Of a stretch of 16,123 nucleotides of DNA, positions 706 to 7,679 are shown piece by piece. Position numbers and translations under genes: made by a program. Positions within the stretch are counted from its first letter, which is position 1. Each line of letters starts with the position of its first letter. Below the pieces are notes generated by a model that saw only the letters and a program-made list of their open reading frames with translations, did not search any database and had not been told where the DNA came from. Source of the DNA: Octopus sinensis (taxonomy: Eukaryota); assembly GCF_006345805.1 (NCBI RefSeq), contig NW_021825163.1:1-16123 (forward strand), given 5' to 3'.

Positions 706-3700
706 ATACGAAAATCGGGAATAACAAAGCGAACATCTTTGTACTCGACAAAATGAAAATCAAAATCATGCTTATAGACAAAATCAAGATCGGGATCACC
801 TCCTAAGAATGCCTGAGACAAGTTGAGATAAAAAAGCTCTTTAAGTAAGAAAATTTGAACTAAGGTTTTAGGTAATCCTTTCTCCTTAATACAGTATTAA
901 TTATTGTCGCGCGCAATGGATGAAACGCGTGCCTAAAGTGAAACGCTGTGAACCTTGAGAAAACCACAAAAAACCTCGAAAATAAAATTAACAATCCTTT
1001 GATGAAAACAGGAATAAAACCGAGAAATCAATTTTTTATTATTATCGTTTGAAAGATTAACAATTTATTTAAATAATGGTTAGCCATTTTAAAATTACCA
1101 AAAAATTAAAAATATTTTAACCTGAAAATTTACCTGTCTAAATTTTTTTAACTTGTGATTTAAATACTATTTTTTCATTTCCATCTTGATCTTTTATTTT
1201 AACTCTATTATTTGAAATTAAATCTTCAACAGTAAAGATTTGTTGATGATAAAAAGACTCTAATTTTCGCTTCTTCGTCCTTTGATTTGTATCAAAATCT
1301 TTTTTCAGCAAAACATTATTTCCAATTGCAATTTCTTTCAATGTTTTTGAAAAATTTCGTTCCATTCTTTCAAGATATTTGTTATTTATGATAGTTTGAT
1401 TTTCATGTTCTTCAATTAATTCATCATCATTATAATAAGAAATGTTATATCCTCTTGTTCGGAAAAAAGCCATAAATGGTGACATATTTATAGAAGAATG
1501 AATTGAAATATTGTACTGATATACAATTTTTTCTAACACATCCACCCATTTTTTCTGTTTGTCTGTGAGTTCTTTTTGAATCCATCTGCAAATGGTTTGA
1601 TTGCAACGCTCCACTTGTCCCTGTGATTCTGGATGTCTTGGACGTCCCCTTTTATGAATTATTTTAAATTCTTCACATAATGACGTTATTTCTGAATTAA
1701 AAAAATTCTGTTCCGTTGTCAGACTGCAGAATTTTTGGTGGACCATAGGAAAGAAATATAGTTTTCAATGATTCCGAAACTGTAACTGCTTCTTTATTTT
1801 CTATTTTTTTAGCAAAGCAAAATTTTGAATAAATATCTATGACATTCATAAGATATTTATAGGAATCATTTATATCTGAATAAAACGAAAGATCGACTAA
1901 ATCAACTTGATAGCTAAAAATAAGCTATTGAATGAACCGTTCTCGAGGTTCTTTGGCTACTATGTTGACTAGTGGATATTTTGTCTTTAATTAAGGCTGA
2001 CTTCGCTGACATTTGTGGCATGATGATATTACATCCCTAATTATGTTTCGATTGATTATGCAAAAATTATTTTTGCAATACTCTTCCATTTTTTAAATCC
2101 ATAGTGATAATTGAATGAATCCTTTCACAATGCAGTTTCATGGATTCGAAATCATTTGAGGCAATTACCAATATTTTGTTTCCATCAGATTGTTTATAAT
2201 ATAGCACACCTATCATTAGATTTAATAGTACCTCCAGAATTTACGAAATTTCTACATTTTTTGAGAAAACGAATCTTTTTAGTCTTGAAAAATCTTCTGG
2301 TATTGTATTATTTATTAAAAAATCAAGAATATTCTTATACTCCTGATCATCCTTTACAATGTTGGCAAATCTCATTTCGATAATATTACTCAAAGTGCGC
2401 AATCATCTTTAATATTGACTTGATAATTGTCAAGAGCTTAATTTGTCACAGGCGCTACCGGTTACCGAGCGCTACGGGTTACTGAATGCTCAAATTTAAC
2501 ATTTAAAGAATTTTTTATAAAAATTAAACCTAAATTTTTTTAGTTATTATATTTAAAATTAATAAATATATAATTTCAATATTTTTAAAAGGCGCAGCAT
2601 TTGATAATTTTTAAATAGATAATTTACCATGCGTATTCTATAAAGTTTTCTTGATGCCTCGCTGTTTTGTCAAAACTGTACATGAATATGATCATATAGT
2701 TAAAATATTGGAAGAGCAGGGGATCATTGGAATATCTAAACAAAAAAATACAAATTAACTTAAAAGTCCAAGAATTTTACTTTCATTACCGGGCGGCTAT
2801 ATCTTAAAGACTCACGTGGAAACCATAAAATAGTCATTTCTGCAGACAATCATGAGGAGATGCAATTAGTGGCTACGCAAATTCATCAAATGACTCATTG
2901 CGGACATAACACGTAATCAGAGATATTTTTTGTCAAACGCGAAATCATCAGGAAAGTAGTATCGGAATGTGATATATGTCGATTTGCGACACCACTAAAA
3001 ATAGTTGATCCTGAAAACCACATTATAGCCTCACAACCAAATGAGAGATTTCAGATAGATCTGATTGATCTCAAAAGGTGAGACTTTGGTATTAAATAAA
3101 TTCAAGGTTTAATGAAAAAAACCAATCTATCAAATGGCTTCTCACTGTCATTGATGTATATTCGAAATATGCGTTCACAAAAAATTTGAAAACTAAGAGT
3201 GGAAGTGAAGTTGCAGAAAATCTTAAAGAAATTTTTTTTGATTTTGGACCATGCCGATTCTTGCAATCTGACAATGGAACGGAATTAAAAATTCCTATGT
3301 TAGAGCATTATGTGATCGCTTCAATGTCCAGCAAATTCATAGTAGACCTAACAATCCAAGGAGCCAGGGAATTATTGAACGCTTCAATCAGACAATCACA
3401 AGATCATTATCTAAGATGATGTCCGAAGATAAGTGTTGGACAAAGAACATAAAGGAAGCAGTGTTTTTTATAATCTCTCTACCCATTCCTCGACAGGTAA
3501 CATTTGAAAATATTTTGAGGCAATACTCCATTTTACAAATATCGTGGGATCAATGGATTCAACAGCATTGAGATTAATACAGATATTGGTAGTTTAAATG
3601 AGATAAATAAAACATTTTTAGATTGTGAAGAAACACTAAATGATGAAAACTGTGCCGACATTGCTTCTGGGCAAAATGAGCAAACAGGTTTTCATTAACA

Positions 3701-5719: not shown

Positions 5720-7679
5720 TGTCACGAGCCTAGGTCGTTACCGAGCCTAGGTCGTTACACTTATGGACTTAGAAAAAAATTCAAAAAAATATTTGAATTC
5801 AATTTCAAAATCGACTTTGTCAAAATAAATATTATAAAATGACAAATACTTAAAAATGGAATTGGATGCCAATATTTTCGATGATAGAATTTAAAAATAA
5901 TGCCAACTAGACCGTGCTTTAAAAACGATTCCCGAACTAAAAATAATATTTTAATTTATGAATTGCTATTTTTTTCAAATAAGAAAAATTCAAAATGCTT
6001 TAAATTAGAAAAATACGCAGAAAATGTATTTTTATTCGAAAATTTTGTCTATTTGAATGTTCGGTCATGAATGTTTCTCTGCTAATTAGGTTTTGAATTT
6101 TTTTATTAACAAAACAATCAATTATGTTATTTAAATTTTTTTAATTCTTTTCATGAGTGTCTTCTTAGTAGTTCCATCATCCATTTGAACTCTGACCATA
6201 TTATGCGGCAGGATTTCAGTTATTGTACAAACTTCTCCGTATGGACTTTCAAATTTTTTGAGTGCAAGTGAAGGATTGGTACCATAATCCTTTGAATCCT
6301 TATCTACAATTTAGAATAATTTGAGTTTACCTTATCTCCAATTTTAAATGATATTTTGACCGATGAACACCCATTCTCCTGTTCATTTTTTGGAAATATG
6401 GAGATGTCACATCGGTGGGCGAAAAGTTGAAAGAAAATTCTATGTTTTTCGAATCTATTCTATATATTGCGAATTTTAACTAACCATCTGAATTGTTACT
6501 CTTCATCTCAGTGTCTTTTTCAGGAATGAAGTTGTTCGATCCTCTAATCCCACGATATCTATGAAATGGGGAATCTCCTAAAAATGAATAATTTTAAGAA
6601 AACCAGTAGAAGAATGTTTACTTAAATTATAAAAATAAACAGCTTCATCTATATACTTCGTCCAACACTTATCTTCATCATTAGCCATCATTTTGATAGC
6701 GACCTTGTAACCGTTTGGTTAAAACGCTCGATGATCCCTTGACTTCTGGGATTGTTTGGCCTACTGTGTATCTGTTGAATGTTGAAGAGATTCACACAAG
6801 GCAGTCACATGTGGATTTTTGAATTCAGTTCCATTATCCGATTGCAAATATTGACACGGTCCAAAACGTAGAAAAATTTTTTTGAGATTTTCAGCAACGT
6901 CAATTCCGCTTTTATGTTTTAGGTTTCGAGTGAATGCGAACTTCGAGTAGACGTCAATAACCGTTAAAAGCCATGCTATAGTTTCATTTGTTTGTTTAAA
7001 TCTTTATTATATAATACAAAAAATTGATACCTCTTCAGATCAATTAAGTCCATCTGGAATTTTTCATTGGGACGATTGGCAATCACATGATTTTCTTCAT
7101 CCCCTACTTTCAAGGGAGTTGAAAATTTGCAAATTTCACAATCGGCAACAATTTTTCGGATTATTTGTCGTTTTACAGTGAAATATCTTTCATGGCACAT
7201 GTTCTCAAGAGTGTTATGTCCACAATGCGAAACGAGATGAATTTGGCTAGCCACCAATTTCATCTCGTCAACGTTGTCCGTCGAAATCACTAATTTGTGA
7301 TTTCCCACCGGCTTGTTTAAGGTATTCTTATTCTTCCATGATTAAAATGAACTTTTCAGCTTTCTTTTTAAGGGAGTAAACTTTTTGCCTCGATTGATTT
7401 TCAATATTTTGTCCAGTTAAAACTTTTTCAAGCAATCGATACTCATCCATATCTTTTACAAAAGAACGCGACATAGGTAACACAGAAAAAACGCGGTTTA
7501 TATGTTTATTACAATTACGGATGTATGGTTATCCGGATATTTTTGTTTTAATATTTAATAGATTAATTTTAAATTTAAAATAATTTTATTAGGCTCAGCG
7601 ATAAATTAATTTTTAATCTTTATAGAAAAATAAGCGAAATGTCACGACCTAGGCTCGGTAACGACCTAGGCTCGTGACA
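5720..7679 (-). mobile_element. Ginger-type DNA transposon, element C (1960 bp), related to element B
   Basis: 39-bp TIR TGTCACGAGCCTAGGTCGTTACCGAGCCTAGGTCGTTAC at 5720-5758 matches 7641-7679 with one mismatch. Perfect 5-bp TSD TCATA at 5715-5719 and 7680-7684. The subterminal ttctaagtcca motif is shared with the 3' end of B. Confidence 0.95.
6131..7474 (-). pseudogene. Integrase-like transposase of element C, frameshifted, with 4 predicted tiny introns
   Basis: MSRSFVKD (ATG 7474).. IHLVSHCGHN ..CEIC.. PNEKFQMDLIDLKR|FKQT..TVIDVYSK ..LQSDNGTEF ..PRSQGIIERFNQ ..HSSTG|DSPF ..KIGDK|IRIQ.. with TAA at 6131-6133. Introns at 7002-7030, 6578-6603, 6455-6484 and 6304-6330. Confidence 0.88.

Follow-up and report, generated by a model that had tools for sequence, protein, structure and literature searches.

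Contig NW_021825163.1 of the Octopus sinensis assembly GCF_006345805.1 carries two transposons, elements B and C, whose retroviral-type integrase genes are each interrupted by four segments of 23 to 34 nt with GT..AG ends. The locus raises the question of whether these segments are spliceosomal introns and, if so, why they are so small and how they came to lie there. The window, which is the whole contig (G000:C1634, 16,123 nt), belongs to an assembly of 2.72 Gb in 13,516 contigs. A preliminary description of the window had proposed that B and C are integrase-type DNA transposons with four tiny introns at identical positions. The analysis reported here makes it very probable that both are cut-and-paste transposons with terminal inverted repeats (TIRs) and an integrase-type transposase gene holding four ordinary spliceosomal introns, which are tiny because their owner, likely a dicyemid, is an organism with micro-introns.

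Elements B and C and their interrupting segments

There are three TIR elements in the window, A on the reverse strand, B on the forward strand and C on the reverse strand, with B nested inside A. All three start with TGT, end with ACA and are flanked by an exact 5-bp duplication. The two elements that share the segments are laid out as follows.

2444..4443, + strand: element B, 2,000 nt, with 39-nt TIRs (87%) and the duplication TAATT
2654..4037, + strand: transposase region of B, with an N-terminal part, H2C2 finger, D,D35E core, acidic linker and C-terminal integrase-like domain
5720..7679, - strand: element C, 1,960 nt, with 44-nt TIRs (95%) and the duplication TCATA
6131..7474, - strand: transposase region of C, with its ATG at 7474 and its stop codon at 6131-6133

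The H2C2 finger is marked by HCGH at 2896 and CDIC at 2968 in B and by motifs at 7227 and 7140 in C, and the D,D35E residues are D 3058, D 3270 and E 3377 in B and D 7050, D 6838 and E 6729 in C. The interrupting segments lie at four sites.

3078..3106, + strand: B site 1, 29 nt, phase 2 (DLK R|F)
3497..3519, + strand: B site 2, 23 nt, phase 1 (HSST|G)
3688..3713, + strand: B site 3, 26 nt, phase 1, in the acidic linker, the boundary least certain of the four
3830..3863, + strand: B site 4, 34 nt, phase 0 (IGDx|xR)
7002..7030, - strand: C site 1, 29 nt, phase 2
6578..6603, - strand: C site 2, 26 nt, phase 1
6455..6484, - strand: C site 3, 30 nt, phase 1, with an in-frame TAG if kept
6304..6330, - strand: C site 4, 27 nt, phase 0, its last codon an in-frame TAG

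All eight segments proved to be GT..AG at the coordinates and in the phases first proposed for them (2, 1, 1 and 0 in both elements). Such ends had a frequency of 0.002 among random 23-34-nt pieces of the window, and the probability of eight GT..AG segments by chance was about 1e-22 to 1e-16, a figure that ignores their post hoc choice in the preliminary description. That the intron sequences of B and C cannot be aligned was also borne out, as the interiors were no more alike than shuffles at all four sites (15-79% of 500 shuffles scored as high). Each of the eight segments would cause a frameshift or an in-frame stop if retained. Site 2 of B was 24 nt long in all four sister copies spanning it, so its 23 nt in the window are likely a homopolymer error. 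B also has an alternative 29-nt GT-AG segment at site 3, which likewise restores the frame.

The effect of removal on the reading frame was examined in 11 natural copies, two of which, L023 of the B family and L005 of the C family, were otherwise unbroken over the core; the other nine had further breaks. The frame of L023 was 340 aa with all four segments out, 187-290 aa with any three out and 137 aa with none out; the corresponding frames of L005 were 374, 252-325 and 141 aa. The preliminary description had suggested searching for intact copies by spliced alignment, and one complete, naturally unbroken relative was found. This element, L057, is 1,606 nt long, has 58% identity to C, carries TIRs and a TAATA duplication, and has four segments of 24, 29, 25 and 26 nt; its predicted protein runs for 410 aa from ATG to stop.

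The positions were also recovered by blind spliced alignment, in which the outside proteins P0121, P0124 and P0126 were placed on window B, window C, L023 and L005. All 12 alignments placed sites 1 and 2 exactly; site 4 was recovered in 10 of the 12 and site 3 in 9. When the B and C proteins were aligned across to each other's elements (B-on-C and C-on-B), site 3 was not recovered and spurious linker introns were called. Among 25 aligned sister loci (7 of 20 for B, 18 of 20 for C), GT..AG was kept at 49 of 49 mapped sites and precise removal was seen in none; at one further site the 5' end is gone through an imprecise 20-nt deletion. Three loci considered as intron losses (L110, L115 and L117) were rejected as such, the segments being still present with decayed ends.

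Several points weigh against taking the segments as introns. After splicing, the longest frames of the window copies are 173 aa (B) and 183 aa (C), and in both copies there are additional 1-nt indels, beyond the segments, that sister copies do not have. The claim that each removal restores the frame thus held for the sister copies L023 and L005, but the window copies stay broken elsewhere. Extra indels of this kind commonly arise from errors in a long-read consensus or from decay. In C, 1-nt indels near 6787, 6695, 6352 and 6294 are not found in the sister copy L005, and a cluster of indels at 7306-7340 differs from all five sister copies spanning it. The B copy is defective, with stops and frameshifts, and near 2912 it lacks 14 nt that other copies have. 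This deletion falls in the zinc finger and is also present in L022 and L023; B belongs to a defective subfamily and would move only with transposase from other copies. The spliced aligner was purpose-written and prefers GT-AG gaps between 18 and 60 nt long; in several copies it reported linker introns that were spurious. Splicing is read here from genomic sequence rather than from transcripts, and on this footing the segments of B and C likely behave as introns. The marks of U2-type micro-introns (GT-AG ends, a restored frame, and a position kept without its sequence) were found at sites 1, 2 and 4, and more weakly at site 3.

Conservation of the segment positions

B and C sit in a clade of nine families in the assembly, here called group I, with a Shimodaira-Hasegawa-like approximate likelihood ratio (SH-aLRT) support of 99. 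The trees were quick trees with SH-aLRT support only, built from one to several copies per family and 36 or 26 top-hit outside proteins. Sites 1 and 2 each fall in the same codon in nine of the nine families, with a GC donor at site 1 in one family. Site 4 was present in all eight families that cover it, called in one of them two codons off beside a short deletion. Segment lengths across group I ranged from 19 to 34 nt. In comparisons between seven families, synonymous sites were near or at saturation, with proportions of synonymous differences of 0.62-0.91 and of nonsynonymous differences of 0.13-0.30. The ratio of nonsynonymous to synonymous rates (dN/dS) was 0.08-0.16 in the 5 of 21 family pairs with unsaturated dS, which shows that the exons on both sides of frame-shifting segments are under purifying selection. 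In one group I family (L071-L073) the first intron is GC-AG and an extra 29-nt phase-1 intron lies just before the catalytic glutamate; two copies of this family have a tandemly duplicated linker.

Site 3 is the weak member of the set. In six families a phase-1 candidate precedes the first conserved aromatic residue, by 5, 8, 8, 11, 17 or 35 nt. Counting against a shared position, the offset is 8 nt in B and 17 nt in C and the acidic linker cannot be aligned; the site is also missing in a seventh family (three copies) and unreadable in two more. The offsets differ by multiples of three, as would fit a single ancestral intron in a linker that has gained or lost codons, and an identical position at site 3 is putative. 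Of the four identical positions first claimed, sites 1, 2 and 4 stood, and site 3 is shared in phase and region only. Sites 1, 2 and 4, and probably 3, would have been inherited from the common ancestor of the nine families.

Classification of the elements

The preliminary description took B and C for integrase-type DNA transposons that move only as DNA in spite of their retroviral-type integrase, and both parts of this view were supported. An inverted end pair was found in 15 of 55 loci, 13 of them with an exact 5-bp AT-rich duplication, and within the C family an exact duplication flanked five of the seven pairs; some of the C-family pairs enclose derivatives of 842-1,666 nt with internal deletions. 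Full elements measure 1.6-2.2 kb, with a single integrase-type frame (about 410 aa) between the TIRs. An empty site is available for C, which lies in an intron of the neighbouring histidyl-tRNA synthetase (HisRS) gene, 12 nt short of the 3' end of the intron and on the same strand as the gene: in all three other HisRS copies checked C is absent and the 5-mer occurs once. Together with this DNA-transposon anatomy, introns were kept in all mapped copies. With Pfam, L057 matched H2C2 (PF17921, E 2.8e-6) and rve (PF00665, E 3.7e-11), with a weak match of the C-terminal domain to Integrase_p58_C (PF22938, E 0.024). Neither YPYY nor a literal GPY/F motif was seen in the predicted proteins, in which a weak integrase-like C-terminal match is present.

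By anatomy, B and C appear to be Ginger2/Tdd-like, and their membership in Ginger2 is putative. Ginger2/Tdd elements are described as having TGT...ACA ends, TIRs of about 45-297 nt and an H2C2 plus DDE core (PMC2836005). The present elements resemble them in their TGT...ACA ends, short TIRs, H2C2 and DDE domains and AT-rich targets, and in showing neither YPYY nor an OTU or Ulp1 tail (PMC2836005). The 5-bp duplications are shared with TDD-4 and TDD-5 of Dictyostelium, whereas animal Ginger2 is given with 4 bp (PMC2836005); the literature disagrees on this point, as Ginger2 duplications are 6 bp according to PMC6839031. The present elements differ from Ginger2/Tdd in size (1.6-2.2 kb versus a tabulated 2.7-6.7 kb; PMC2836005), in an SPYG or HPYG motif that replaces GPY/F, with the weak Integrase_p58_C match, and in carrying one to seven micro-introns; the available text of PMC2836005 gives no intron data for Ginger2.

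That intron-bearing Ginger elements are known, as the preliminary description stated, is in print for Ginger1, in which one to four GT-AG (rarely GC-AG) introns interrupt the transposase and one intron position is common to four Hydra families, Ginger1-5, -6, -7 and -8_HM (PMC2836005). Ginger1 resembles the present elements in its integrase-type transposase with introns, but its GPY/F, YPYY and OTU/Ulp1 features were not seen here (PMC2836005). Membership in Ginger1 was rejected, since the duplications are 5 bp and AT-rich rather than 4-bp CCGG/CCGT, and the predicted 410-aa protein is without YPYY and without an OTU/Ulp1 C-terminal domain. GingerRoot differs in its TA ends and 6-bp duplications (PMC6839031). 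KRBA2 and SCAND3 are Ginger2-derived (PMC3575427), and a KRBA2-named Atlas cluster at 0.92 provides a lead only.

The closest outside proteins were microsporidian (Dictyocoela at 47-50% and Nosema at 41% identity, measured over the N-terminal 288 residues) and environmental records. These are integrase-only proteins of 400-600 aa, and in the named ones only integrase domains rose above noise in Pfam. The three named microsporidian records (Dictyocoela muelleri P0121, D. roeselum P0136 and Nosema granulosis P0126) are 424-458 aa long and labelled 'Gag-Pol polyprotein'. They match the present elements in length and domain order but run through all of the intron sites uninterrupted, and the Dictyocoela proteins adjoin group I and a sister group, group III, in the trees (SH-aLRT 99-100). 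The Tdd-4 element is said to have been described with introns by Wells in 1999. Ginger has been reported in a microsporidian (PMC5751038). No homologue was found among 88 candidates when the first exon of C was used as a query among longer proteins, and a scan of JGI metagenomes returned only distant relatives, whose best segments had 20-43% identity to the query.

Size of the predicted introns and the likely owner of the contig

The HisRS gene next to the elements served as an internal control for host intron size. Its predicted structure is given below.

4700..8420, - strand: HisRS gene, ends approximate
8209-8239, - strand: predicted intron, 31 nt
8090-8114, - strand: predicted intron, 25 nt
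7932-7963, - strand: predicted intron, 32 nt
5708-7823, - strand: predicted intron that holds element C
5584-5609, - strand: predicted intron, 26 nt
5445-5495, - strand: predicted intron, 51 nt
4943-4968, - strand: predicted intron, 26 nt

The HisRS introns had a median of 27 nt (n=15, from the two micro-intron HisRS genes only and not genome-wide), and the transposon segments a median of 26 nt (n=46, range 21-34, one copy per family), with similar AT content and end bases. The transposon introns are tiny because the introns of the owner organism are tiny. The view that small size is a trait of the transposon family did not survive, as the neighbouring HisRS gene has introns of equal size and about 26-27 nt is the published value for dicyemids. 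The intron that hosts C would measure about 151-157 nt without it; as a matter of splicing, this allele presents a micro-intron organism with a ~2-kb sense copy of C inside a ~151-nt HisRS intron.

A second micro-intron HisRS (L250; G000:C8852, C9899 and C12641) has about 70% DNA identity to the first and introns of 22-53 nt in the same codons, and may be either a paralogue or the gene of a second parasite species. The HisRS match at L045 (G000:C9002:73334-76290) is interrupted for about 1.9 kb close to another of the introns, which may reflect a second, independent insertion into a HisRS gene.

Another HisRS gene, on C11264, spans 23 kb versus 1.9 kb for the micro-intron HisRS, and has long introns at seven codon positions of HisRS micro-introns, with two more sites unresolved. 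The comparison plainly points to host introns having shrunk in place. There are also two types of 18S rRNA gene in the assembly, one of 1,667 nt with a GC content of 45% on a small contig (G000:C1618:6101-7767, L147), and one of about 2.6 kb with a GC content of 64% on the chromosome-scale contigs C1, C2, C3, C8, C18, C19, C27 and C30. None of the 598 listed transposon matches fell on a contig numbered below C49, and the chromosome-scale contigs seen lie in C1-C30; the 598 are best candidates only, and hence not proof of absence from the chromosomes. Because there are two 18S types and two kinds of HisRS, and because the matches are confined to higher-numbered contigs, the assembly is inferred to hold two organisms, the second being a eukaryote on unplaced contigs of up to at least 1.29 Mb.

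This second organism, and the owner of the contig, is with good confidence a co-assembled dicyemid parasite. A length of about 1,667 nt is presumably that of dicyemid 18S, and the long, GC-rich 18S is taken here to mark a coleoid cephalopod, the host of dicyemids, a point that a literature search did not confirm. Dicyemid introns have a mean of 26.2 nt in a comparison of cDNA with genomic sequence (PMC2222250) and a median of 27 nt (PMC6543705), at 6.2 introns per gene in a genome with 49% repeats (PMC6736024). Intron-rich genes with a median of about 26-27 nt, the mark of Dicyemida, were found in the two HisRS genes. The present introns resemble dicyemid and myxobolid micro-introns in length (21-34 nt), AT-richness and GT(a)...AG signals (PMC2222250, PMC6543705, PMC6736024, PMC13644364). 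Those were published for host genes, and introns in transposases are not described in the available text of these sources; no word starting with 'transpos' occurs in PMC6543705 or PMC6736024. Two points tell against the identification. The HisRS matches were generic eukaryotic, with no named match to the owner, and among animals such introns are reported not from dicyemids alone, the other group being myxobolid myxozoans (PMC13644364).

Other transposase lineages and the possible gain of introns

Other transposase lineages on these contigs carry different sets of micro-introns, at at least 13 sites overall. Group III, the sister of group I (SH-aLRT 96-98), is without sites 1 and 2, has site 4 and perhaps the linker site too, and has up to six other sites. 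Site 2 is scored as lacking in group III because the raw DNA frame is continuous in three of five copies and the other two have homopolymer errors; an apparent frameshift after HSS, considered as a hidden site-2 intron, was rejected on this evidence. Two sites are private to group II, the group of element A, with segments of 22 and 22-24 nt. In the L139 family near group II, there was no segment over the 254 residues aligned. Group IV (L261-L265, for example G000:C12602:199800-203300) is a distant lineage of near-identical copies of about 2.2 kb; five of five copies have a single 24-nt GT-AG segment, free of stops and at a site unlike those of the other groups, and the frame is open either way. 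Element A, the HisRS on C8852 and the L261 family had been candidates for intronless genes and were rejected, as all three carry micro-introns. The features of element A are as follows.

905..4511, - strand: element A, 1,602 nt without B, with 56-nt TIRs and the duplication ATTAT, from a separate transposase lineage
2210..2231, - strand: predicted micro-intron 1 of A, 22 nt, phase 1
1914..1937, - strand: predicted micro-intron 2 of A, 24 nt, phase 2 (EPRE|RYQVD), ten codons before site 1 of B and C

None of the four B and C segments is present in A, into which B inserted 68 nt upstream of the start codon (ATG).

In the trees, groups I and III together, group II and group IV occupy three separate places, and the outside proteins that lie between them have none of these insertions. 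In 80 distant metagenome loci, of which 74 span site 1 and 27 span site 2, no intron was called at sites 1, 2 or 4. Since further sites occur in other lineages of the genome, introns appear to have been gained or lost along the transposon lineages, and gain within this genome would be the more economical account. What tells against this is that gain and loss are not safely polarised, since the gene callers behind the outside relatives favour uninterrupted frames. In CACTA transposases, intron boundaries are conserved across families and loss prevails, with one putative gain (PMC4158355), whereas here separate lineages have mostly non-overlapping sets.

Alternative explanations

Four other explanations compete with the reading of B and C as DNA transposons with host-sized introns, partly gained within this genome. 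The one with the best claim holds that the introns are ancient, arrived at normal size and shrank with the genome, and that the intronless relatives lost them, so that no gain is needed. Microsporidia are intron-poor and lose introns, so loss there is to be expected; the introns of the host shrank in place, and intron-bearing relatives are under-represented in protein databases. Loss also dominates in CACTA transposases (PMC4158355). This explanation is possible, though on balance doubtful. Of at least 13 sites, none is common to any of groups I-IV apart from site 4, which I and III have, and perhaps the linker site; the groups fall into three regions of the tree with uninterrupted proteins around them; the 80 distant metagenome loci yielded no intron call at sites 1, 2 or 4; and an ancestor with all 13 sites would require many parallel, precise losses. 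Far less probable is that the elements and micro-intron genes are the large animal genome's own and that there is no second organism. They do come from the same assembly, and the second organism has no named match; against this stand the two 18S types, the HisRS genes of 1.9 kb and 23 kb with the same intron positions, and the absence of matches below C49 among the 598 best candidates scored, with the chromosome-scale contigs seen within C1-C30.

The remaining two deserve still less credence. If the segments were unspliced, they would be small insertions or footprints in dead elements, GT..AG by accident. Both window copies are indeed broken, the case for splicing is drawn from DNA letters only, and stopless multiples of three in some families can be read through, but it is extremely improbable that chance (about 1e-16 or less for eight segments) put segments of unrelated sequence and differing length at the same codon and phase in nine synonymously saturated families, with purifying selection on the exons flanking frame-shifting segments and an unbroken copy in existence. 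Scarcely any weight can likewise be given to B and C as remnants of long terminal repeat (LTR) retrotransposons or Polinton/Maverick elements. The rve and H2C2 domains, the TG...CA ends, the 5-bp duplications seen in many LTR elements, the 'Gag-Pol' names of P0121, P0126 and P0136 and one Preplasmiviricota look-alike cluster in Atlas would suit it, but it is largely refuted by the TIRs, duplications and empty site: the terminal repeats are inverted and not direct, 1.6-2.2 kb with one ~410-aa frame leaves no space for gag, reverse transcriptase or polymerase, the named relatives of 424-458 aa have integrase domains only, and introns are kept in all mapped copies. Polinton/Maverick membership was rejected in its own right (TGT ends, 5 bp and one short frame versus AG...CT, 6 bp and a DNA polymerase).

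Other features of the window

A stretch at 128-671 is flanked by short GC-rich repeats (family D1) and may be a further small non-autonomous element. Two GC-richer frames, at 13340-13891 (+ strand) and 15175-15630 (- strand), carry a cysteine-histidine motif and a KRPDG motif and had no Pfam match; we take them to resemble the C-terminal endonuclease part of non-LTR retrotransposons. Elsewhere in the assembly, L266 holds a reverse-transcriptase-like frame of 794 aa. On the reverse strand of the window there are also a fragment of an EH-domain gene (Eps15/intersectin-like) at 8834-9480 (PF12763, E 4.6e-11) and a frame at 15822-16113 with a weak cofilin/ADF match (E 0.058).

Proposed mechanism and implications

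With B and C read as cut-and-paste transposons with ordinary micro-introns, the element would be transcribed and the U2 spliceosome of the host would remove the four segments. The ~410-aa transposase would then bind the TIRs and excise the element as DNA, which would reinsert at AT-rich sites with a 5-bp stagger. The introns would be passed on in every copy because the element would move as DNA. Full-length transposase of B and C would need every segment removed, and the proposed dependence of the transposase on host micro-intron splicing holds to this extent. It is not absolute across the clade, as some families have a stopless 24- or 27-nt segment that would add only 8-9 residues if kept.

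The micro-intron size is already known from dicyemids and shared intron positions from Ginger1, and the feature is less surprising than first judged. What looks new is that three separate transposase lineages in one genome have different micro-intron sets. No publication on dicyemid Ginger elements or on transposase micro-introns was found in a search of mostly open papers, with Repbase, Dfam and supplements outside its scope. For annotation, tools based on open reading frames miss these transposases or mislabel them, as 'Gag-Pol' or as fragments. These contigs are likely parasite DNA in an animal assembly, and any repeats or genes attributed to the host from them would consequently be assigned to the wrong organism.

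A more tentative suggestion, which we consider rather less likely than not to hold in full, is that host-sized introns were gained repeatedly (at least 13 sites in three lineages) and that introns of 21-34 nt act as a barrier to transfer into the animal host. If this is true, one gaining lineage is sister to the intronless elements of microsporidia, and a genome noted for intron shrinkage would hold a dated series of intron gains. The micro-introns would tie the elements to the spliceosome of the parasite, leaving them without function in the animal whose kidney the parasite inhabits, and should introns shorter than about 30 nt prove beyond the splicing machinery of animal hosts, micro-introns would restrict the horizontal passage of elements from the parasite into its host. 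A multi-copy clade with at least 13 micro-intron sites, mostly private to single lineages, lends itself to reconstructing how introns come and go under a minimal-intron spliceosome.

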